A DNA stretch of 64,000 bases from Candidatus Muiribacteriota bacterium (GTDB lineage Bacteria; Muiribacteriota; Muiribacteriia; Muiribacteriales; Muiribacteriaceae), in the NCBI GenBank assembly GCA_051747805.1, contig JBNJGP010000001.1:5281-69280 (forward strand), given 5' to 3'. A program made the position numbers and the translations under genes. Positions within the stretch are counted from its first letter, which is position 1, and each line of letters begins with the position of its first letter. Positions 4,285 through 53,181 of the stretch are shown here, piece by piece. The notes below the pieces were generated by a model. The model was not told the origin of the DNA, did no database searches, and saw nothing but the letters and a program-made list of their open reading frames with translations.

Positions 4285-5274
4285 ATGAGAAATTCAAAAA
4301 GGAACTTTATTTTTTTGATTTTACTTTTCTGTATTTTTTCACCTATGGGAAATATTCTTGTTGTAGCAGACGGGGCGTATCCGAATGATGTGAAATATTA
4401 TACAGACAGATTAAGTCAGTTTGAGTATGAGGTTATGGATTCAGAAAATGTTGATATTGATTTATTAAATAATTATAAAGCTGTTTTCTGGATTTGCGGA
4501 GATGCTTTTACCACACTTAAAAATGAGCAGAAAGATATGCTTAAACAGTATATTACAACTGACAATCAAACAGGTTTATTTATTGAGGGCGAAAGATTAA
4601 TGTATGATGCTGCATGGATAGATTATAAGTTCTTTTTCAGAAATTTCTTTAAATCTGATTTTGGCGGACATAAAACTGGAAATGTAAATTTTTCAACTCA
4701 CTGGTCAAATGTTATAACTTGGGGAATAAGAGATGATTTTTATGTAAATCTCGCGGGGAGAGACCTGGATTTTATTGATTATAGAGGAATGTCAGACAAC
4801 GAGGTGCTTTTTGAAATCAAAGAACCTAATCAGAGAGGAAGTTCTTCTAAAGTGGAAGCTGCGGGAGTAGCAATAGATAATTACAAAAATAGAGTTGCCC
4901 TTCTTTCTTTTTCACCGGCTTCTAGAAGCTTCTGGGAAATAGATTCTTCGGATTTTGTAAGAAATCTTGCAGAATGGCTTGTTTATGACATAAGAAACGT
5001 AATGTCAGAATATAATAAAATTGCCTCAAGAAGAACTGAAGAAGATTATGATGAGGCTCAAAGATATACTGAAATGGCTTTTCAGAGAATAGTTGCCGGC
5101 TTTGAAAATAATAATTATCAGGAGTTTGATTATTTAAAAAAAGCAGTAGAAAATCATCAGGTTTCAAAAGAACTCTCAGAAAAAATTTTTATGAGATTAA
5201 AGGAAAAATATACTTCATTAGAAGAATGGCAGCAGAATTTTTCAATAAAAACAAGAATAGAGTTTATGAAGTAG
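4285..5274 (+). CDS. Hypothetical exported protein (signal peptide, then flavodoxin-like/ThuA-like N-domain?)
   Basis: Hydrophobic N-terminus FIFLILLFCIFSPMG. RBS GGGGGA upstream. No recognisable catalytic motif. Confidence 0.5.
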   Translation: MRNSKRNFIFLILLFCIFSPMGNILVVADGAYPNDVKYYTDRLSQFEYEVMDSENVDIDLLNNYKAVFWICGDAFTTLKNEQKDMLKQYITTDNQTGLFIEGERLMYDAAWIDYKFFFRNFFKSDFGGHKTGNVNFSTHWSNVITWGIRDDFYVNLAGRDLDFIDYRGMSDNEVLFEIKEPNQRGSSSKVEAAGVAIDNYKNRVALLSFSPASRSFWEIDSSDFVRNLAEWLVYDIRNVMSEYNKIASRRTEEDYDEAQRYTEMAFQRIVAGFENNNYQEFDYLKKAVENHQVSKELSEKIFMRLKEKYTSLEEWQQNFSIKTRIEFMK

Positions 5275-5301
5275 AATTAATTTATTTATAAGGAGTTTTA
5301 T

Positions 5302-6630
5302 ATGTCGTATGAAGTTATAGTAATTGGTGGAAATGCTGCCGGTTTATCAGCCGCGATGGAGGCTAAAAGGCAGAATCCATCATTTAAAATAACAGTTTTT
5401 GAAAAAGGGGAGTTTATTTCCTATGGGGCCTGCGGACTACCTTATTATCTAGGTGGAATGTTAGAAAACCCTGATGATTTAATGGCAAAGCCCCCTTCCT
5501 ATTTTGAAAAAAAAGATGTAAAAGTTTATAAAAACACTCCGGTTATTGATATAAACAGCCGTGATAGAAAAATTACTGCATTATTTAACAATAAAGAACA
5601 GGAGTTTGGCTGGGATAAACTTATAATTGCAACAGGAGCCTATCCTAGAAAACTACCTTTTGAAAAAGAAAATCTTAAAAACCTGTTCCATTTTACTAAA
5701 ATAGAGCATGTTGTAAACGTAAAAAAATTTATAAACGAGAATAATGTAAAAAAAGTTATGATTATTGGTGGCGGATATATTGGTATTGAAGTTGCGGATA
5801 ATCTTGTTAAATCTGGTATAGATGTTTCAATGGTTGAGTTAAACAGGATTTTATCAGTTTTTGATAAAGATGTTTTAAAACCTGTGTACAATAAAATAAA
5901 TAATAATAAAAAATTCACTTTATATGAAGAAATAGGTATCAGCAGTTTAAATGAAGAAAATAATAAAGTTAGAAGTGTTTCTCTTTCAAATGGCGAAAAA
6001 TTACCATGTGATATGATAATTGTCAGTGCGGGTGTTATTCCCGAAACAGAGCTGGCGCAGAAGGCTGGGATAAAAATTGGTGAAACTGGTGCAATTGAGG
6101 TTAACTCAAAGGGGCAGACAAGTAATCACAATGTTTTTGCGGCCGGGGACTGTGCTGAGATTTATCATGACTTGCTTAAAAAAAATGTTTATATACCTCT
6201 TGGAACCAACGCAAACAGAGCTGGTAAAACTGTGGGCAGAAATCTTGAAGTTGCAAAAGAAGAGGTCAAAGTACTGGGAAACTCTATGCTTGAAGCTTTT
6301 GATGTTGAAATTGCCAGTGTTGGTTTAACCGAAAGTCTCGCCATAAAAAATAACTATAATTATATTGCCAGAATGTCAAGTTTTAGATTAAAACCTGGTT
6401 ATGTTTCGAATCAAAAAATTTTGATAAAATATATTATTGATAAATATTCAAAACAACTTCTGGGTGTTCAGATGGCTGGTGATGCAGAGGTTCATGGTAA
6501 AATAAACTGTGCCTCGATAATGATTAATAATAAAATGACCTTAAAAGATATTCAGAAGTTGGATTTTGGCTATCACCCTCTGCTTTCAGGACTTTGGGAT
6601 CCTCTTGTACTTATGGTCAGGAAGTTTTAA
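5302..6630 (+). CDS. FAD-dependent pyridine nucleotide-disulfide oxidoreductase, CoA-disulfide reductase / NADH oxidase family
   Basis: GxGxxG FAD site VIVIGGNAAGLSAA. Redox Cys in SYGACGLPYY, the CoADR/Nox/Npx signature. Second Rossmann IIGGGYIGIE. RBS AAGGAG. Confidence 0.8.
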   Translation: MSYEVIVIGGNAAGLSAAMEAKRQNPSFKITVFEKGEFISYGACGLPYYLGGMLENPDDLMAKPPSYFEKKDVKVYKNTPVIDINSRDRKITALFNNKEQEFGWDKLIIATGAYPRKLPFEKENLKNLFHFTKIEHVVNVKKFINENNVKKVMIIGGGYIGIEVADNLVKSGIDVSMVELNRILSVFDKDVLKPVYNKINNNKKFTLYEEIGISSLNEENNKVRSVSLSNGEKLPCDMIIVSAGVIPETELAQKAGIKIGETGAIEVNSKGQTSNHNVFAAGDCAEIYHDLLKKNVYIPLGTNANRAGKTVGRNLEVAKEEVKVLGNSMLEAFDVEIASVGLTESLAIKNNYNYIARMSSFRLKPGYVSNQKILIKYIIDKYSKQLLGVQMAGDAEVHGKINCASIMINNKMTLKDIQKLDFGYHPLLSGLWDPLVLMVRKF

Positions 6631-9479: not shown

Positions 9480-9599
9480 AAATTTTTTCTGGTATTTTTA
9501 GAACTTGAGTTTAGAATTGTTTTGTTGACAACTAATGTTTTTTAGTGCAGATTAGGTTAGAAGAATATTTTTTTAAAGTAGATGCGGAGGTTTATTATT

Positions 9600-20977: not shown

Positions 20978-21958
20978 ATGGCAGAATTAAGGAAGGATCC
21001 AGTTTCACAAAGATGGATTATTATATCTGACAAGGAGTTAAATCCTGAAGATTATCTTTATAACGAGGCTAAGAATTCCAACAACACAGAAAATTGTCCT
21101 TTCTGCGATAAAAATTCACATATGATTGAAAAGGAGATTTTAAGAACATCATATAATAATCGATGGGCTGCAAGAATTGTAAATAATAAATTTCCTGCCC
21201 TGATTTCTGAGGTAGAGCTTGAAAAAGAGGCGGACGGTGTTTATGATAAAATGAGTGGTTACGGCTATCATGAGGTTATAATTGACAGTTATGAACATTT
21301 TGTCCCGTTTCACAAGACAAGTCCCGAAAAGATAGAAAAAGTTCTTGAGGCCATGGTAAAAAGGTACAGAGAATTAAAAAAAGATAAGAATTTAAAATAT
21401 GTACTTTTTTTTAAAAATTACGGAGCTTCTGCGGGGGCTTCACTTTCCCATTCACATGCACAGCTTGTTGCTACGCCTGTTGTTCCAAAAATCGTAATGA
21501 ACGAGCTTCTTTTTTCAAAAAAATATTTTAATTATAAAGAAAGATGTTTATTCTGCGATTTAATTAATCAGGAAAAAAAAGATAAAGAGAGATTAATAAC
21601 TTTTAATCAGGATTTTTATGCGTTTGTTCCCTATGCTCCAAGATTTCCTTTTGAAACATGGATTTTACCTGAACTTCATAATTCCAGCTTTGGAAATATA
21701 AAAAATTGTGAATTGAAAAATTTAGCTGTTATAATTAAAGAATGTATTAACAGATTAGAAAAAGTTTTTAAAAACCTTCCTTTTAATTTTGTAATACATA
21801 CAGCTCCTTTTGAAAATAATTGTGGGGATTACTATCACTGGCATATTGAGATTATGCCCCGGCTGACAAAGGTGGCCGGTTTTGAATGGGGCTCGGGGTT
21901 TTATGTAAATGAAACAAGCCCTGAAAAAGCTGCCGGGATTTTAAGAGAGGCATTTTAG
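20978..21958 (+). CDS. GalT-like (HIT superfamily) hexose-1-phosphate nucleotidyltransferase, paralog 1
   Basis: Zn-site CPFCDKNSH. HIT-type HSHAQ histidine motif (SLSHSHAQLV). C-terminal HWHIEIMPRLTKVAGFEWGSGFYVN, conserved with paralog 2. Confidence 0.75.
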   Translation: MAELRKDPVSQRWIIISDKELNPEDYLYNEAKNSNNTENCPFCDKNSHMIEKEILRTSYNNRWAARIVNNKFPALISEVELEKEADGVYDKMSGYGYHEVIIDSYEHFVPFHKTSPEKIEKVLEAMVKRYRELKKDKNLKYVLFFKNYGASAGASLSHSHAQLVATPVVPKIVMNELLFSKKYFNYKERCLFCDLINQEKKDKERLITFNQDFYAFVPYAPRFPFETWILPELHNSSFGNIKNCELKNLAVIIKECINRLEKVFKNLPFNFVIHTAPFENNCGDYYHWHIEIMPRLTKVAGFEWGSGFYVNETSPEKAAGILREAF

Positions 21959-23411: not shown

Positions 23412-24422
23412 ATGAGAGATTACAGAAAAGACCCAATTACACGACGCTGGGTAATAATATCTTCTGATAGAAGCAAGAGACCAAGAGATTTTGGTCATGT
23501 AACAGATATTACTGATGACAAAAACTGCCCTTTCTGCGAAGGAAACGAAGATATGACTCCTCCTGAAATTTTTGCACTCCGGGAAAATGGCGAAGAAAAC
23601 GGCCCAGGGTGGAAGGCAAGAGTAATTCCTGACAAATATTCCATTCTTGAAAATAGAGGAGATGTTAAAAAAAAGGGCCATGGTATATATGATAGCATGA
23701 GTGCCACAGGATTTCATGAACTTATAATAGAAACGCCTAATCATATGGGAAGTCTTGCAAATTTAAGTTTTGATGAAATAAAAACCTATTTAAAGGTGTT
23801 AAAAACAAGAATGGGGGAACTTAAAAACGATTATAGAATACAGTATATACTTGCCGTTAAAAATTATGGATCTGAGGCAGGGGCCAAGTTTAAACATTCA
23901 CATTCACATTCTCATATTGTTGGCCTGCCTATTGTTCCAAAAAGAGTTAAAGAAGAGATTGACGGAGCAAAAGAATATTACAGCTTCCGGGAAAGATGTG
24001 TATTCTGTGATATTGCCGCCCAGGAACTTGCTGAAAACGAAAGAATAATATTAAATAATGAGGATTTTATATCATTATGTACATATGCGGCCCGGTTTCC
24101 ATATGAAACACATATTTATCCTAAAAAACATATTTCATCCTTTGAGGATACGCCTGAGGAAATGTTTGATAATCTGGCCCGTATTTTAAAAAAAACTATT
24201 TTATCTTTATGTAAGGTTATTGATACATTAGCCTATAATATAGTTATTCATACTAAACCAGTTAACCAGGTTGTGCCTGTTTTATATCACTGGCATATTG
24301 AAATAATGCCTAGAGTAACAAAAGTTGCAGGGTTTGAATGGGGTTCAGGTTTTTATATTAATTCTGTTCTTCCTGAAGATGCTGCAAAGTTAATGAAAGA
24401 AAAAATTAATGAGGGGGTTTAA
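23412..24422 (+). CDS. GalT-like (HIT superfamily) hexose-1-phosphate nucleotidyltransferase, paralog 2
   Basis: CPFCEGNEDM, FKHSHSHSHIVGLP, HWHIEIMPRVTKVAGFEWGSGFYIN. Same architecture as 20978..21958. Confidence 0.75.
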   Translation: MRDYRKDPITRRWVIISSDRSKRPRDFGHVTDITDDKNCPFCEGNEDMTPPEIFALRENGEENGPGWKARVIPDKYSILENRGDVKKKGHGIYDSMSATGFHELIIETPNHMGSLANLSFDEIKTYLKVLKTRMGELKNDYRIQYILAVKNYGSEAGAKFKHSHSHSHIVGLPIVPKRVKEEIDGAKEYYSFRERCVFCDIAAQELAENERIILNNEDFISLCTYAARFPYETHIYPKKHISSFEDTPEEMFDNLARILKKTILSLCKVIDTLAYNIVIHTKPVNQVVPVLYHWHIEIMPRVTKVAGFEWGSGFYINSVLPEDAAKLMKEKINEGV

Positions 24423-26391: not shown

Positions 26392-26985
26392 ATGATTTTA
26401 GGTATTTGTGGAAAAATTGGCAGTGGAAAAACATTGTTGTCTGAATTTTTTAAAAATAATCAAAACAGTTATATAATTAACTGCGACAAACTGGCCTCAG
26501 AGTTAATTAACGATAAACAGGAAATTCTTGAATTAATTTCAAAAAATTTCGGCTCCAAACTGATTATAAATAATCAGCTGAATAAAAAAATGATGAGAAA
26601 AATTGTCTTCAATGATAAAAAAAGTCTTTATAAACTTAATCAGATAGTTCATCCCTTTCTTTTTAATGAAGTGAAAAATATTTTAAATATAGAAGAGCTT
26701 AAATCTGAATACAGTTATATAGTTGTAGAGGCTGCTGTTTTATATGAAGCTTCTTTATATAAGCTTGTTGATAAAATTATATGGGTGAGTGCAAAGCTGC
26801 ATAATATACTTCAGAGAGTAAGTTTAAGGGATAAAGATAAAAGAAAAAATATTGAAAATATATACAAAATTCAAAAATCATATAATGAAGTGCAACCAGA
26901 GCCTGATATAGTTATAGAAAATAATAAAACAGTCAATGAATTTAAAAAAAAAGCAGGGAGTCTTGTTGCCTCCCTTAATAAATAA
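26392..26985 (+). CDS. coaE: Dephospho-CoA kinase
   Basis: P-loop ILGICGKIGSGKT at the N-terminus, ~197 aa, CoaE-like layout (HP motif in IVHPFL). Confidence 0.75.
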   Translation: MILGICGKIGSGKTLLSEFFKNNQNSYIINCDKLASELINDKQEILELISKNFGSKLIINNQLNKKMMRKIVFNDKKSLYKLNQIVHPFLFNEVKNILNIEELKSEYSYIVVEAAVLYEASLYKLVDKIIWVSAKLHNILQRVSLRDKDKRKNIENIYKIQKSYNEVQPEPDIVIENNKTVNEFKKKAGSLVASLNK

Positions 26986-27116
26986 CTTGAGTTTAGCAAA
27001 AAATAGAAATTTTAACCTGTCAGCAATTCTCAATGAAAATAGAGAAAATCCTTGATTTGATGGGGTCAGGCCGAGCCCAAATTTAAGCCAGCAGAGGTCG
27101 GCCTGACCACTCAAGT
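26986..27116. repeat. Intergenic repeat element copy A (TIR-bearing MITE-like / structured-RNA-like family); internally deleted and inserted relative to copy C
   Basis: Shares its first 29 nt (cttgagtttagcaaaaaatagaaatttta) exactly with the element at 40791. Contains an 11-bp perfect hairpin GGTCAGGCCGA/TCGGCCTGACC. Ends in ACTCAAGT, matching the right TIR of copy C. Fills the whole gap between convergent coaE and the dehydrogenase gene. Confidence 0.6.
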
Positions 27117-27125
27117 TTAAATTTA

Positions 27126-28375: not shown

Positions 28376-29605
28376 ATGGGAAAGAACAGATTTTTATTAA
28401 TTACTTTTATACTTTTATATATATATACGGGTTATGCTAATACTTTTAACCGGCTTGACGAGAGGATGAGTGGCTTTGAACTTATGTATGGTGTTGAGTC
28501 TTATGAGAATGAATTTGGGGATTTTCAAAATTATTTTAAACTTCAGTTTTTTCCGGAATTTCAAATTAGACCAGAGACCAGATTAGTGCTGGATCTATCA
28601 TTTATATATGATACAGATGGGAATATCTTGCTTGATCATTATTCTGGAAGTGGTGATATCCTTGAAAAAATACATTTTATTGAGCATGATGACGGGTTTA
28701 GAAATAAAATGAGAATAGGATATCTGGATAATGTTACATTTGGAAATGGTTCCATAATGAATAACTATACAAATATGGGACGTTTCCCGGAAGAAAGAAA
28801 GTTAACGGGACTTTATGCTAATTTTGAAAACTCTCATGATGACGGCTGGGAAGTGGTTTTTAATGATTTAAAAAAACTTTCAATGGCTGGTGTTAGAAAA
28901 TATATTGTTCCTCTTGATGATGTAGAAATCGGCGGCAGTTATTTTATAGACCGACGTCCTTCTGCTAGCAATAACGGTGACTCTGTTCGAGTTTATGGAC
29001 TTGATTATATAACCCCGGTTTATTTAGGGTTTTCAAGAAAAGTTTTTTTGTATCAGGATTTAACTAGAATAAAAGGAACAGGTTCATGTTATACAACTGG
29101 TGCAAAAATTGGCAACGGAGATGGCTTTGGGGCGCAGGTAGAGATTAAAAGTTATTCAGGAAATTTTATACCACATTATTTTGACTCCCTTTATGAAGTG
29201 GAAAAACAGAGGAAATATAATGAACTTAAGTCTGGACAGAATAATGGACGGGTCAGAAGTCTGAATGTTCAGACAAACTATAATATGGGGCGTCATTTAG
29301 AAGGGAAACTGTTGTATGAAATGTACGATGTTTCTGATATTAATCCTAAATTAGGTGTTCAACTTTCAATGGATGGTATGTTTCTTCCTGAAGGTTTGCA
29401 GTTTGAATGGACATATTTAAACAAAGATGCAGATTTTTCTAATATAAATCAAAATAAAAATTCAAAAGATGTATATATAAACACAAAGTTATCCTATAGG
29501 GCGCCTTTTGGTGTTGAGTTAGAGTTAAACAGAAAAAGAACGGTAAGCCAGAGTGGAAATGCTGAGTATGTTACATCATTCATGACTGGTTTCAGGTTTA
29601 GATGA
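28376..29605 (+). CDS. Secreted beta-strand-rich protein (outer-membrane beta-barrel-like), function unknown
   Basis: Signal peptide FLLITFILLYIYTGYA. Alternating hydrophobic pattern throughout. RBS AAGGAG. Confidence 0.5.
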   Translation: MGKNRFLLITFILLYIYTGYANTFNRLDERMSGFELMYGVESYENEFGDFQNYFKLQFFPEFQIRPETRLVLDLSFIYDTDGNILLDHYSGSGDILEKIHFIEHDDGFRNKMRIGYLDNVTFGNGSIMNNYTNMGRFPEERKLTGLYANFENSHDDGWEVVFNDLKKLSMAGVRKYIVPLDDVEIGGSYFIDRRPSASNNGDSVRVYGLDYITPVYLGFSRKVFLYQDLTRIKGTGSCYTTGAKIGNGDGFGAQVEIKSYSGNFIPHYFDSLYEVEKQRKYNELKSGQNNGRVRSLNVQTNYNMGRHLEGKLLYEMYDVSDINPKLGVQLSMDGMFLPEGLQFEWTYLNKDADFSNINQNKNSKDVYINTKLSYRAPFGVELELNRKRTVSQSGNAEYVTSFMTGFRFR

Positions 29606-29952
29606 GTTTGTTTTTAAGAAGTTTAAAAGTTTCCAGAAAAAATAATATACCGTTTATATTTTTTATAATTTCGTATAATCATTTAAAAAAGGTGTTAAAA
29701 AAAATACCGTTAAAATCTATTGATTCAATTATAAGTGAAGAAAATATTATTATTACTGTCGATAAAAAAATGAAAAAAAAAGGTTCTATTAAGGGGAATA
29801 AAATAAAAGTTAAATATGAAAAAAATAATTTAGAATATGAAGAGGTGCTTTTTCATGAATTGTTTCATTATTTTGAAAATAAATTTAATATACAGAAAAA
29901 TCAAATAATTTCAGAAACTGCGGCAAGAATTTTTTCAAGTCTATATTCATAA
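29602..29952 (+). CDS. Small protein with HExxH (HELFH) motif, possible minimal zinc metallopeptidase-like; translationally coupled to upstream gene
   Basis: EEVLFHELFHYFENKF. ATGA overlap with the upstream stop. Confidence 0.4.
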   Translation: MSLFLRSLKVSRKNNIPFIFFIISYNHLKKVLKKIPLKSIDSIISEENIIITVDKKMKKKGSIKGNKIKVKYEKNNLEYEEVLFHELFHYFENKFNIQKNQIISETAARIFSSLYS

Positions 29953-30025
29953 TAATGCTTAGAAACATAACGGGGTCTGTGCCGAGCCTGAATTTAAGCT
30001 TACAGAGGTCGGCCTGACCACTCGC
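29953..30025. repeat. Intergenic repeat element copy B (core module only, no 29-nt left module)
   Basis: cggggtctgtgccgagcctgaatttaagcttacagaggtcggcctgaccactc aligns to the cores of copies A and C (GGGG.C.TGTGCCGA ... AATT ... GAGGTCGGCCTGACCAC). Confidence 0.5.
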
Positions 30026-30097
30026 TTTATATTAAAATTTTTTGGACAGTATAAAAAGATTATGTTAAATTATAAAAAAGTTTCTGGAGGAAATTCA

Positions 30098-40231: not shown

Positions 40232-40762
40232 ATGAGTTATAGAGGAATTACAGGATTTAAGGTGAAAAACGATTTTAAATTTGTGTCTCATCTTGATACT
40301 GTAAAAATGTTTGAAAGGCTGCTTAGAAAATATAATGTTTCACTTATATACAGTGCTGGTTTCAGCCCGCATCCCAAAATATCTATTCCTGTTCCACGTC
40401 CTGTAGGAGTTGAAAGCAGGGCAGAATATGTTGAATTTTTATATGAAGACGGTGATATAGAATTTTTTAAAGACGTTTTTGATAGTAATTTAATAGAAGT
40501 TTTTTATATTAAACAATATTTTTTGAATACTCCCTCTCTTTCAAAAAGGATTAAAAATATTGATTATTTTTTTTCGGATTTTGATTATGAAAAAATTAAT
40601 TCAGAAATTTTAAAAAACTTCAGAGGAATAAATAACTGGAAATTTTTAGATAATATTTTTAAAATAAGTACAGGCAGGGATTTTTCTTTATCTAAATTCA
40701 GCAGAGAATACTGTTTTAAAAAAGTAAAAAGAAAAGTTAATATTAAAAAAATTGATGATTAA
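40232..40762 (+). CDS. Radical-SAM-linked protein (TIGR03936/DUF2344 type)
   Basis: FVSHLDTVKMFERLLRK...GFSPHPKISIPVPRPVGVES matches the ISHLD...GFNPRPK...PLGVES pattern of this family. Starts 1 nt after the rSAM stop. Confidence 0.75.
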   Translation: MSYRGITGFKVKNDFKFVSHLDTVKMFERLLRKYNVSLIYSAGFSPHPKISIPVPRPVGVESRAEYVEFLYEDGDIEFFKDVFDSNLIEVFYIKQYFLNTPSLSKRIKNIDYFFSDFDYEKINSEILKNFRGINNWKFLDNIFKISTGRDFSLSKFSREYCFKKVKRKVNIKKIDD

Positions 40763-40789
40763 TAAAATAAGCAGGCTGGTTATTCAGTA

Positions 40790-40939
40790 ACTTGAGTTTA
40801 GCAAAAAATAGAAATTTTACCCCGTAGACACTTAAAAAGCTTGATTTCACGGGGGGGCTGTGCCGACATCAAATTCTGATAAGAATTTGTGTAGGCCTGA
40901 CCACAAAAGCCTTTTAAGAAAATTTGCTAAACTCAAGTC
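40790..40939. repeat. Intergenic repeat element copy C, most complete, with 16-nt terminal inverted repeats
   Basis: Left TIR cttgagtttagcaaaa (40791-40806) and right TIR ttttgctaaactcaag (ttgctaaactcaag at 40925-40938; the window shows 'atttgctaaactcaag'). Internal CCCCGT...ACGGGG stem. Core gggggggctgtgccgac...aatt...taggcctgaccac is shared with copies A and B. Confidence 0.6.
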
Positions 40940-40962
40940 AGTAATTATAATGGAGTTTTAAT

Positions 40963-42468
40963 ATGAGTAAAAAGATTTTGGTTAATAATGATGAGGATCA
41001 GATAAGAATTGCTATAACAGAAGAAGATAAATTTGTAGAATATTATGAAGAAAATGCCGATTCTGCAAGAATTGCCGGAAATATATACAAGGGAAGGGTT
41101 AGAAATATTCTTCCTGGTATGCAATCGGCCTTTATAGATGTGGGGCTTGAAAAAGATGTTTTTTTGCATATAAATGATGTTTATTTTGAAGAGGAAGAAC
41201 AAACCGGTCTTATTGATGAAGTTATAGATGAAGATAGAAGTAAATCAGAAGAAACTCTTCAGGAAAAGGGAATTTTTATTGAAAATCTTCTATCAAAAGG
41301 GCAGGAAATAATAGTTCAGATTATAAAAGAACCTATTGGAAATAAGGGTCCCCGCGGAACCACGCTCATAACCCTGCCAGGACGTTACATTGTCTTAATG
41401 CCTAATCAAAAACATATTGGTGTATCAAGAAGAATTCAGGACGAAGATGAAAAAGAAAGGCTGAAAGAAATTGGACATAAAATATGCCCTGAAAATATGG
41501 GAATAATTATGCGTACGGTTTCAAAAGGGAAGAGTTTTAATGACTTTGAAGAGGACATTACATTTTTACTTAAGCTATGGTCTAAAATTGATAAAAAAAT
41601 CCAACAGGCCTCAACTCCCGAGCTTATTTATTCAGATCTTGAGCCTGTTTTAAAAATGGTAAGAGACCTTTTTTCAGATAATGTTGAGGAACTGTTAGTT
41701 GACACAAAAATCGATTTTGATCGTATAAATGATTTTTTTGATTTTCTTCCAGAAAAAATGCTTAAAAGAATAAATTATTATTGTGAAGTCTCTCCGATAT
41801 TTGAAAAGTTTGGAATTGAAAGAGAAATATCCAGGCTTTTAAATAAAAATGTTGGGCTTAAATGTGGGGGATATATAGTAATTGAAAAAACAGAAGCTTT
41901 AACGGCTATTGATGTGAATACTGGTAGCTTTGTCGGAAAAACTTCTGATCTTGAAAAAACTGTTTTCAGAACGAACATGGAGGCGGCTAAAGAAATTTCA
42001 AGACAGCTTCGACTGAGAGATATAGGCGGCATAATAATATTGGATTTTATTGATATGCTGAGAGAAGAAAATAAAAAACTGGTGGTTGAAGAACTTAAAA
42101 AAGAATGTGAAAAAGATAAAATGCCAATAACCATATGTGATTTAAGTGAGTTTGGTCTTGTAGAGATGACAAGAAAACGTGTAAGAAAATCACTTCTTGG
42201 TCAGGTAACCCAGCCCTGTTCATACTGCAAGGGAAAAGGTTTTGTATTATCTCCTCAGGAAATAAGTAGTAAGGTTAGACGGGAAATTAGAAGGCATGCA
42301 AGAAAAATCACTAAAAACAATATTCTTGTCTCTGTTCATCCTGAAGTTGGTTTTTATTTAATTGGCGAAGACGAAAAAAATCTTTCAAGAATGGAAGCCG
42401 AGACTCAGAAAAAAATATATATCAGAACAGAAAAAGATTTTCATATTGAAAATTTTGTTATTTCTTAA
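40963..42468 (+). CDS. rng: Ribonuclease G / RNase E-family endoribonuclease
   Basis: S1 domain GNIYKGRVRNILPGMQSAFIDVG. DNase-I-like and Zn-link regions (CxxC: CSYCKGKG). ~500 aa, Rng-sized. TATAAT and GGAG precede the ATG. Confidence 0.85.
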   Translation: MSKKILVNNDEDQIRIAITEEDKFVEYYEENADSARIAGNIYKGRVRNILPGMQSAFIDVGLEKDVFLHINDVYFEEEEQTGLIDEVIDEDRSKSEETLQEKGIFIENLLSKGQEIIVQIIKEPIGNKGPRGTTLITLPGRYIVLMPNQKHIGVSRRIQDEDEKERLKEIGHKICPENMGIIMRTVSKGKSFNDFEEDITFLLKLWSKIDKKIQQASTPELIYSDLEPVLKMVRDLFSDNVEELLVDTKIDFDRINDFFDFLPEKMLKRINYYCEVSPIFEKFGIEREISRLLNKNVGLKCGGYIVIEKTEALTAIDVNTGSFVGKTSDLEKTVFRTNMEAAKEISRQLRLRDIGGIIILDFIDMLREENKKLVVEELKKECEKDKMPITICDLSEFGLVEMTRKRVRKSLLGQVTQPCSYCKGKGFVLSPQEISSKVRREIRRHARKITKNNILVSVHPEVGFYLIGEDEKNLSRMEAETQKKIYIRTEKDFHIENFVIS

Positions 42469-51834: not shown

Positions 51835-53181
51835 TTGCATTGTAATAAAATAATAATTCTGATAGTAATTCTATTTCAAATGATTTTTATAACTCCTGCA
51901 GAACAAAATAAAGATATAATTGATGAAATTTTTGGCGATGAGCTTGAACGTCAGGAGATGGAGGAAAAAAAAGAAAGTCCGGAATTTTTTATTGAGCTGG
52001 CCAATGAGCAGAAACAAGAAGGAAACTATCGTCAGGCTGCTGATTTATTTAAAAGAGCCTCTGATTTAGACCCGTCAGCTCCGGGAATACGTGCCCAAAG
52101 ATTTAAAATGGAAGCTCTGGCCTATATTAATGAGTACATTTTTGTTATTTATCTTACCGCTTTTATTGTTATTTTTTCTATAATAATGAAAATAGCCTCA
52201 AGTATTTCTAAAAATTCCGACAAAAGAGTAGAAGATAGAAAGAAAAAAGATATAAAAAAATTAAAAGATGCGTTTATGGCAGGTAAATATGATAATGCTA
52301 TAAAAAAAGGTCGTGATATTTTAGAAAAAACTTATGTGTTGTCTATACCTGATAAATTCAATATTTACACTATTTTATCCAAAGCTTATTATAGGAAAAA
52401 AGTTTTTGTTTCTGCTAAAAAATATGCGTACGATGCCCTGAAATTAAAAAGTGCAGCTCCTGAACTGCACGATATTTTATGTAATATTTTTCTGTCTCAG
52501 CGGGAAATGTCTCCAAGGGCCATAAAAGAATACGAAAGAGCCCTTAAAAAGAAACCTAATGATACTAAACTTCTTAAAATCCTTTTTGAATACTATTATG
52601 CTAAAAAAGAGTTATCAGATAATGCTGTGGCAATTTATAATAAAATTTTAAAGTTTTTTCCTGATAAAATTGAAGCCTACGATATGTTATGTCTGCGAGG
52701 CATCAGAAAAAAAGATTTATCCGAAGGGATAATTCCAATTTACGAAACAGTAATAGACCAGCTCAGACCCCATGATATTTCTTTAAAAAATATTTTGCTG
52801 AAAGCATATTTTAATAACAGTAAATATAAAAAGGCTAATAAACTCGTTCGGGAACTTATAGTTCTTCCTGAGTTTATTGAGGATAGAGAAATGCATAAAA
52901 TATTATTTAAAACTTCACAGGCTTTAAATAAATTTGATGAAATGAATAATCTCTATAATGAATTAAAAGAGAAATATCCGGATTCAAAAAGTCTTGCAAA
53001 TATTTATGAGGAGACAAGTTCCAGGCATGAAGATTATCAACTTGAAGAAAAAATTAAAAATAACAAAGATAAAAATCAATCAACTATTAATAAAGGAATA
53101 AAAATATGTACAGTATGTGCACATATAAATGTTCAGGATGCAAAGTTCTGCGAAAAATGCAAAAAGCCTCTAAATATTTAA
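51835..53181 (+). CDS. TPR-repeat membrane protein with C-terminal zinc ribbon
   Basis: TTG start with GGGAGG RBS. N-terminal hydrophobic segment, second TM YIFVIYLTAFIVIFSIIM, then TPR-like helices. C-terminal CTVCAHINVQDAKFCEKCKK. Confidence 0.5.
   Translation: MHCNKIIILIVILFQMIFITPAEQNKDIIDEIFGDELERQEMEEKKESPEFFIELANEQKQEGNYRQAADLFKRASDLDPSAPGIRAQRFKMEALAYINEYIFVIYLTAFIVIFSIIMKIASSISKNSDKRVEDRKKKDIKKLKDAFMAGKYDNAIKKGRDILEKTYVLSIPDKFNIYTILSKAYYRKKVFVSAKKYAYDALKLKSAAPELHDILCNIFLSQREMSPRAIKEYERALKKKPNDTKLLKILFEYYYAKKELSDNAVAIYNKILKFFPDKIEAYDMLCLRGIRKKDLSEGIIPIYETVIDQLRPHDISLKNILLKAYFNNSKYKKANKLVRELIVLPEFIEDREMHKILFKTSQALNKFDEMNNLYNELKEKYPDSKSLANIYEETSSRHEDYQLEEKIKNNKDKNQSTINKGIKICTVCAHINVQDAKFCEKCKKPLNI

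Follow-up and report, generated by a model that had tools for sequence, protein, structure and literature searches.

Three related repeats (copies A, B and C) are located within 14 kb of a 64-kb stretch of Muiribacteriota DNA, which is referred to as the window. They form a real family, as originally predicted, and this family is low-copy and mosaic: one member (C) shows every hallmark of a MITE insertion, and a hairpin module has been conserved in more than one genus. We consider it probable that the family represents non-autonomous, MITE-like mobile DNA that exists in few copies, contains a REP-like hairpin module and is passively transcribed within operons. The copies and their associated features are listed in Table 1.

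Table 1. Coordinates of the repeat copies and of their associated features in the 64-kb window
Feature	Coordinates	Strand	Remarks
TAAAT, possible left target duplication of A	26979..26983	.	weak; pairs with 27118-27122
Copy A	26985..27117	+	~133 bp; left arm identical to that of C, B-like core
Left arm of A	26985..27014	+	30/30 identical to C 40790-40819
18-mer TCAGCAATTCTCAATGAA inside A	27020..27037	+	matches L111 4358-4375
Core hairpin of A	27060..27112	+	perfect 11-bp stem GGTCAGGCCGA/TCGGCCTGACC
TAAAT, possible right target duplication of A	27118..27122	.	weak; pairs with 26979-26983
Copy B, solo core hairpin without terminal repeats	29960..30028	+	69 bp
CAGTA direct repeat, left of C	40785..40789	.	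target-site-duplication-like
Copy C, full-length element	40790..40938	+	149 bp
Left terminal inverted repeat of C, ACTTGAGTTTAGCAAA	40790..40805	+	perfect complement of 40923-40938
Internal hairpin of C, CCCCGT-N23-ACGGGG	40820..40854	+	arms 40820-40825 and 40849-40854
GC-rich core hairpin, C variant	40851..40904	+	G-run, CTGTGCCGA ... TAGGCCTGACCAC
Right terminal inverted repeat of C, TTTGCTAAACTCAAGT	40923..40938	+	pairs with 40790-40805
Promoter-like TTGCTA-16 nt-TATAAT	40924..40951	+	10/12 consensus match, half in the right repeat of C
CAGTA direct repeat, right of C	40939..40943	.	abuts the right inverted repeat

Copy C is located between an ORF with a DUF2344 assignment (stop at 40762) and rng (start at 40963). 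Its length of 149 bp and its non-coding nature agree with the original prediction; no start-to-stop frame fits into the element, and three of the six frames are interrupted by stop codons across the core. The terminal inverted repeats had been described as perfect over 16 nt. This holds true, but the register was off by one base: the right-hand string given at that time (TTTTGCTAAACTCAAG) is absent from the window, which reads ATTTGCTAAACTCAAG (A where a T had been given). This perfect inverted repeat is unique in the window when a length of at least 16 nt and a span of up to 400 nt are considered, and none was obtained in 40 simulated windows (first-order Markov). Both ends of the element are directly abutted by CAGTA, a direct repeat resembling a target-site duplication that had been missed before. 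Identical 5-mers at this spacing occur at 0.25% of the window positions, which corresponds to an empirical P of ~0.0025. Owing to the terminal A and T of the element, the duplication can be read as being up to 7 nt long (TCAGTAA). The predicted internal CCCCGT/ACGGGG stem was found, and the core hairpin of C has its own CAAATTC/GAATTTG extension. The element folds strongly, both as RNA (-50.6 kcal/mol, z = -6.3 against shuffles) and as DNA (z = -7.1 against shuffles). Prokaryotic MITEs are shorter than 500 bp, non-coding, and have terminal inverted repeats of ~4-30 bp and flanking direct repeats; their targets are AT-rich intergenic regions, and they form a stable stem-loop when transcribed (PMC10969869). 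Structurally, copy C corresponds to a prokaryotic MITE as defined there.

The insertion site of C was compared to the corresponding loci from four relatives that belong to four different lineages (L108, L109, L116 and L117). The distance between the DUF2344 ORF and rng is -4 (overlap), 43, -4 (overlap) and ~0 nt, respectively. In the three relatives in which they overlap or abut, the two genes are presumably co-transcribed. The 200-nt spacer in the window is thus the exception, and the excess is accounted for by element C. Upon removal of the element and one CAGTA, the spacer is reduced to 46 nt, and the empty site would read ...GGTTATTCAGTAATTATAATGG.... The four relatives without such a spacer suggest an insertion at C, even though they represent distant lineages (65-74% nucleotide identity) rather than strains of one species. 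The RNase G encoded in the window is 100% identical to a protein from a Candidatus Muiribacteriota MAG; the next RNase G proteins, among the loci of which the four relatives were chosen, reach only 63-71% identity to it. The MAG from which the window derives holds the proteins MGM0606813.1 and MGM0608038.1.

It had been proposed that the right end of C contributes promoter sequence to rng. The TTGCTA is indeed found 16 nt before the TATAAT ahead of rng (40924-40951). A supply of the rng promoter by the element is, however, not supported beyond chance, with 7 such matches in 700 nt versus 3.2 expected. In addition, the -10 hexamer directly abuts the GGAG of the ribosome-binding site (40952-40955; the ATG of rng is at 40963), so that a transcript starting from there would lack this site.

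Copy A is homologous to C along its whole length (nhmmer E 2e-8 to 4e-9). It shares with C the core and an exactly identical left arm, which extends over 30 nt rather than the 29 nt counted originally. In the remaining part of the alignment, which has 52 gap columns, 67% of the 85 aligned nt are identical. For an arm that had diverged to the same 67% identity, a complete match over all 30 nt would be expected with a P of ~6e-6. An intact end next to a decayed interior would fit a transposase-binding terminus; alternatively, it may result from conversion between the copies. From the right end of A, 7-8 nt are kept (AACTTGAG/CTCAAGTT, closing the element). The TAAAT pair that flanks A requires a terminal repeat that is one base longer than in C, and it may be a chance match, as the flanks are AT-rich. 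If the site is reconstructed on the basis of TAAAT, CoaE would end with LNKFTI, with an 8-nt overlap between its gene and the convergent dehydrogenase gene. Such a reconstruction is coherent; other convergent gene pairs in this compact window overlap likewise. Directly before copy A, within the last codons of coaE, there is a hairpin (GGGAG-N9-CTCCC, 26956-26974), for which Rfam returned only a meaningless 8-bit match.

Copy B had been described as consisting only of the core, and no terminal repeats were detected at this copy. It starts 8 nt past the stop codon of a small ORF (29602-29952), and no target duplication was found at this copy. The small ORF codes for 116 residues, contains an HExxH motif (HELFH), has no family match and overlaps the upstream 409-residue ORF by 4 nt. 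That upstream ORF (28376-29605) was considered as a hidden transposase but was rejected; it has a signal peptide, a beta-barrel-like sequence and no family match.

The cores of A and B are 88% identical over 43 nt. The core is present in all three copies, as had been stated: its end (GGCCTGACCAC) occurs exactly three times on the + strand of the window, while 0.15 occurrences are expected by chance at up to one mismatch. BLAST and sensitive profile searches did not reveal any copy in the window beyond A, B and C. A 12-nt terminal repeat remnant had been reported near 9512. This is a match of 12-13 nt (9502-9514) at chance level (BLAST E ~0.4), and the terminal repeat pattern with three mismatches yields 6 matches in the window versus 5.6 expected by chance. 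All three copies are intergenic, as confirmed by a check against the window ORFs. The attribution as MITE-like is supported for C (terminal inverted repeats, CAGTA, no ORF, relatives without the spacer). The conditions that had been named for a refutation of the original prediction turned out in its favor: there is a target-site duplication, another genome contains a further copy, and no known RNA or tRNA was matched. A uniform three-copy family with terminal inverted repeats is, in contrast, contradicted by A, which has lost most of its right end, and by B, which is devoid of terminal repeats.

The core module comprises ~50-60 nt and has the structure GGTC-x-GCCGA ... TCGGC-CT-GACC. The stem consists of 11 bp (alternatively, 4 + 5 bp around an internal loop) and is closed by a loop of 23-27 nt; the unit as a whole has ~50 nt. 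A pattern was derived from the positions common to all three cores and was used to search all JGI metagenome contigs. This exact-pattern search resulted in one true relative (L111, 30% GC), so that a further copy exists beyond the window, in another Muiribacteriota genome. The five other matches were rejected as chance (GC-rich, probably coding DNA). L111 represents contig Ga0265293_10009500, the acetate kinase of which is exactly that of the Muiribacteriota MAG GCA_964483065.1. The same assembly also harbors L117. A more relaxed pattern (GGGGN{3,6}GCCGAN{20,32}GGCCTGACCAC) matched at least 107 loci in genome contigs, nearly all of them in GC-rich genomes; those listed were taken as chance. 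Matches in viral contigs to the core, the left end and the 18-mer also appear to be due to chance (unrelated phage sequence, mostly coding by eye); this includes the occurrence of TCAGCAATTCTCAATGAA in five viral contigs. A BLAST comparison of the elements to plasmid and phage collections returned no match. The option that the core is a small ORF was rejected, because the frame that is open in A, B and L111 lacks a start codon and is closed in C. A six-frame chimeric core peptide, compared to a set of 5.8 billion proteins for the detection of spurious ORFs, had no match either.

Copy B and L111 (5061-5120) are 92-93% identical over ~60 nt. For comparison, genes from the window and from the L111 genome show a nucleotide identity of 74% (rng) and 67% (radical-SAM). 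With respect to its core, B is 90% identical to L111, but only 75% to A and 54% to C. As B is closer to the core from L111 than to A and C from its own genome, neutral vertical descent cannot generate this pattern. Either a recent movement between lineages or a constraint on the sequence may be responsible and, in either case, the location has changed. The core in L111 is located between the tmRNA gene (165 bits) and a helicase/methylase island. This site is non-orthologous to the window, where the neighbors of copy B are the small HExxH ORF and def. In L111, the core is part of another perfect 17-nt inverted repeat (AAAAACATTAAACTGTT, 4990-5225), with arms unrelated to those of C and A. A clear target duplication was not found around this inverted repeat. 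Covariation between the closing helices of C and L111 was considered and rejected, because the arms outside the core turned out to be non-homologous in a profile search. Thus, C and L111 are two different elements with the same core.

It may be that the ~60-nt hairpin is by itself a functional, sequence-constrained module specific to the Muiribacteriota, either the recognition hairpin, with unusually large loops, of an undescribed HUH-type system for the mobilization of single-stranded DNA or a conserved RNA element of untranslated regions. In both cases, it would be a module that keeps 92% identity across genera and repeatedly becomes part of longer palindromes; we assign only a small chance to this.

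The region on the tmRNA side of L111 has several features of its own. Downstream of the tmRNA gene, 1.27 kb (4355-5623) are devoid of any ORF longer than 78 aa. This region contains direct repeats of ~263 nt (4414-4653 and 4677-4914, 83-90% identical, with a partial third at 5238-5306), each of which has several short hairpins. The genes beyond these repeats code for an SNF2 helicase, a large N6/N4 DNA methylase and a ResIII helicase and are reminiscent of a defence island. Two further assemblies of the locus break off inside the tmRNA or shortly behind it; one of the contigs (L127) stops exactly at the first repeat.

The features of the core also allow for an alternative explanation. The core might be a REP-type hairpin of single-stranded DNA that is cut and copied by a RAYT or an IS200/IS605-type HUH tyrosine transposase, with the outer repeats being palindromic targets. 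REPs are GC-rich palindromes of 20-40 bp with a stem of 5-13 bp, a loop of 2-20 nt and an unpaired tag at one end (GTAG or CGTC, with GTGG as a reported variant of GTAG). They are extragenic, are located just downstream of coding regions, and in several families are nested in longer palindromes (PMC3733652). Similarly, the core forms an imperfect palindrome that is rich in GC, against a genomic background of 30% GC. It is extragenic and positioned just past stop codons; it stands alone in B and is nested in C/A and in L111, where the long inverted repeats around it are unrelated to each other. GTGG-TCAGGCCGA is read on the minus strand of each of the four copies, with the GTGG at the foot of the stem, and the three copies from the window all point in the same direction with respect to the leading strand. 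However, the loop (23-27 nt) and the length (~50 nt) exceed the REP norms, and the putative GTGG tag has its GG within the stem, while the described tag is unpaired. The copy number is apparently low, the window does not encode a RAYT, and an orientation bias cannot be established from three copies. Moreover, this explanation leaves unaccounted for both the 5-bp duplication of C and its perfect terminal repeats, features that indicate a DDE-type event. We thus consider a REP-type origin unlikely.

The original prediction had offered structured RNA as the other option besides a MITE. According to this option, the copies would be RNA genes or cis elements that form a three-way junction (closing helix, 5' hairpin, conserved core hairpin) in the untranslated regions of the neighboring genes, e.g., as a target or stabilizer of an RNase upstream of rng. 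The predicted folds are strong, not only for C but also for A (z = -3.9 against shuffles), and the counterpart in A of the CCCCGT/ACGGGG stem of C is, according to the alignment, still paired on the + strand by means of G-U pairs. Between genera, the core retains 92% identity, as compared to ~70% for genes. C and L111 have the same architecture despite unrelated closing-helix sequences, and the location of B and C inside probable operons means that they are probably transcribed. Against this, both strands of C fold about equally well, as is expected of any palindromic DNA, and the fold of L111 is no better than shuffles (z = -1.5). The pairs of the core stem are invariant across A, B, C and L111, with a compensatory change in only one of nine, so that covariation is uninformative either way. 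Rfam 15 yielded no gathering-level match in the window and nothing relevant on any copy at E up to 10, and ARAGORN called no tRNA, in line with the statement that no known RNA family was recognized. There is no promoter-like site directly upstream of B, and no terminator-like site was called at A, B or C; a T-run after the stem is missing in each copy, the tails being CACTCAAG, CACTCGCT and CACAAAAG. The neighboring genes are functionally unrelated (coaE, the small HExxH ORF, DUF2344/rng), and such a spacer before rng is missing in four of four relatives. Taken together, the RNA half of the original prediction is not supported, and we regard this option as quite improbable. A potential IHF site in C (CATCAAATTCTGA) was discarded, as it does not fit the consensus WATCAANNNNTTR (by eye only).

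According to a further alternative, the repeats arose without transposition, by local segmental duplication or as scars of recombination, for example as attachment-site leftovers of an integrative island such as the one next to the tmRNA gene of L111. This would be consistent with the occurrence of three copies within 14 kb and with the mosaic structure of the family, where an arm is common to A and C and the core is common to A, B and L111. In addition, the exact 18-mer from A is found in L111, 3 nt past the CCA end of the tmRNA (BLAST E 3e-5), at the edge of the helicase/methylase island. However, three points within 14 kb of a 64-kb region are not unusual (P ~0.12 by our own estimate). The flanks of the copies have nothing in common, so that no segment larger than the element was duplicated. 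The perfect terminal repeats of C with the abutting duplication are unlike the products of site-specific recombination, the window contains neither an integrase nor, according to ARAGORN, a tRNA or tmRNA, and the core is present in another genus at an unrelated site. This alternative is thus very unlikely.

The gene context in the window is inconspicuous. Pfam and NCBIfam assignments for ~50 window ORFs revealed only housekeeping genes (hisS-like, uvrA, glycogen genes, coaE, def, fmt, secG, panD and rng, as well as genes for oxaloacetate decarboxylase and two-component systems). Transposases, integrases, reverse transcriptases and RAYTs are absent from this set, and thus the elements are considered non-autonomous. 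In nearly all 2-kb bins the GC skew is positive, and the + strand encodes 45 of the 55 ORFs. Therefore, the window is located on one replichore, with the + strand as the leading strand. Two additional observations relate to other parts of the window. Paralogous GalT/HIT-like (DUF4921-type) genes (20978-21958 and 23412-24422) flank the glycogen synthase gene; they have DNA stretches with 72-79% identity at a spacing of 2452 nt. An apparent non-coding gap of 1.4 kb was rejected, as it is coding: it contains an ORF of 448 residues (51835-53181) that has a TTG start codon and a 75-nt overlap with the next gene (a TPR protein).

For the MITE-like family that we favor, the following scenario is suggested by the anatomy of the copies. 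A transposase of the DDE type, with its gene elsewhere in the genome, would bind the 16-bp inverted ends. The 149-bp element C would have been inserted at a staggered cut at CAGTA between DUF2344 and rng, thereby duplicating 5 bp. Copy A would be a decayed or rearranged relative which has lost most of its right end. The core module, which occurs alone (B) and also in a different inverted-repeat element from another Muiribacteriota genus, would be either a REP-like unit that spreads on its own or a strongly conserved one. B and C are located between co-directional genes and A between convergent gene ends, so that passive transcription as part of mRNAs is most likely. Copies carried on an mRNA would fold into very stable stem-loops, and if mRNA stability or processing were affected, or rng uncoupled from DUF2344, this would be a by-product. 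Several observations count against a MITE. The number of copies is small (3 in the 64-kb window and 4 in the ~200 kb of Muiribacteriota-like DNA that were surveyed), full terminal repeats and a clean duplication are restricted to a single copy (C), the "empty sites" are from relatives at 65-74% nucleotide identity and not from strains of the same species, and the exact 18-mer from A is found at the tmRNA flank in L111.

Most likely, the family is ordinary selfish DNA in a little-studied phylum. A full-text literature search for the names of the phylum returned only 8 publications, none of which names it in title or abstract, and mobile DNA from Muiribacteriota appears to be undescribed so far. 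A MITE-like family would be a small entry to a catalogue of mobile DNA from this phylum, and strain typing in metagenomes might make use of it as a marker. The DUF2344-rng pair was split by copy C, and a very stable hairpin ahead of the gene for RNase G could alter rng expression. Between genera, conservation of the core far exceeds that of the surrounding genes, and the sites at which it is found are unrelated. It may have been kept intact either by recent transfer or by a sequence-specific partner.

Compared to known systems, SPRITE and terminator-like repeats, as well as intrinsic terminators, are similar in having a GC-rich hairpin right after stop codons. They differ with respect to the T-run, which does not follow the stem in any copy, and to the terminator-like sites, none of which was called. 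In addition, C is located between genes that overlap and are presumably co-transcribed in three of four relatives. Palindrome-associated transposable elements (PATEs) from the IS200/IS605 family share with the repeats that they are short non-coding hairpin derivatives, possibly with a strand-orientation bias. The ends of IS200/IS605 elements are devoid of terminal inverted repeats, and their insertion does not lead to a target duplication. An IS200/IS605-derived element is thus excluded for C, which has both. The core resembles REPs and REPINs, as it is a GC-rich, imperfect and extragenic palindrome downstream of genes, occurs alone or nested, and has GTGG on the minus strand of four copies, its GG being part of the stem. 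REPs and REPINs are associated with a RAYT gene and occur in tens to thousands of copies. In contrast, there are no dimers or clusters of the core, no RAYT in the window and apparently few copies. Despite the resemblance, the core is not filed as a REP because of its loop, its size and its partly paired tag.

Correia/NEMIS (Neisseria), ERIC/IRU (enterobacteria) and RUP (Streptococcus pneumoniae) are bacterial MITEs. The Correia element duplicates TA upon insertion, while 5 bp (CAGTA) are duplicated at C. The family also differs from these MITEs in its apparently low copy number (3 in 64 kb, only one of them intact) and in that its interior GC-rich hairpin is also found without the ends. Otherwise, the likeness extends to a length of 100-200 bp without an ORF, to terminal inverted repeats with a short flanking direct repeat, to an AT-rich intergenic site near gene ends, to a very stable predicted stem-loop in the transcript and to a possible promoter-like hexamer at one end (PMC10969869).
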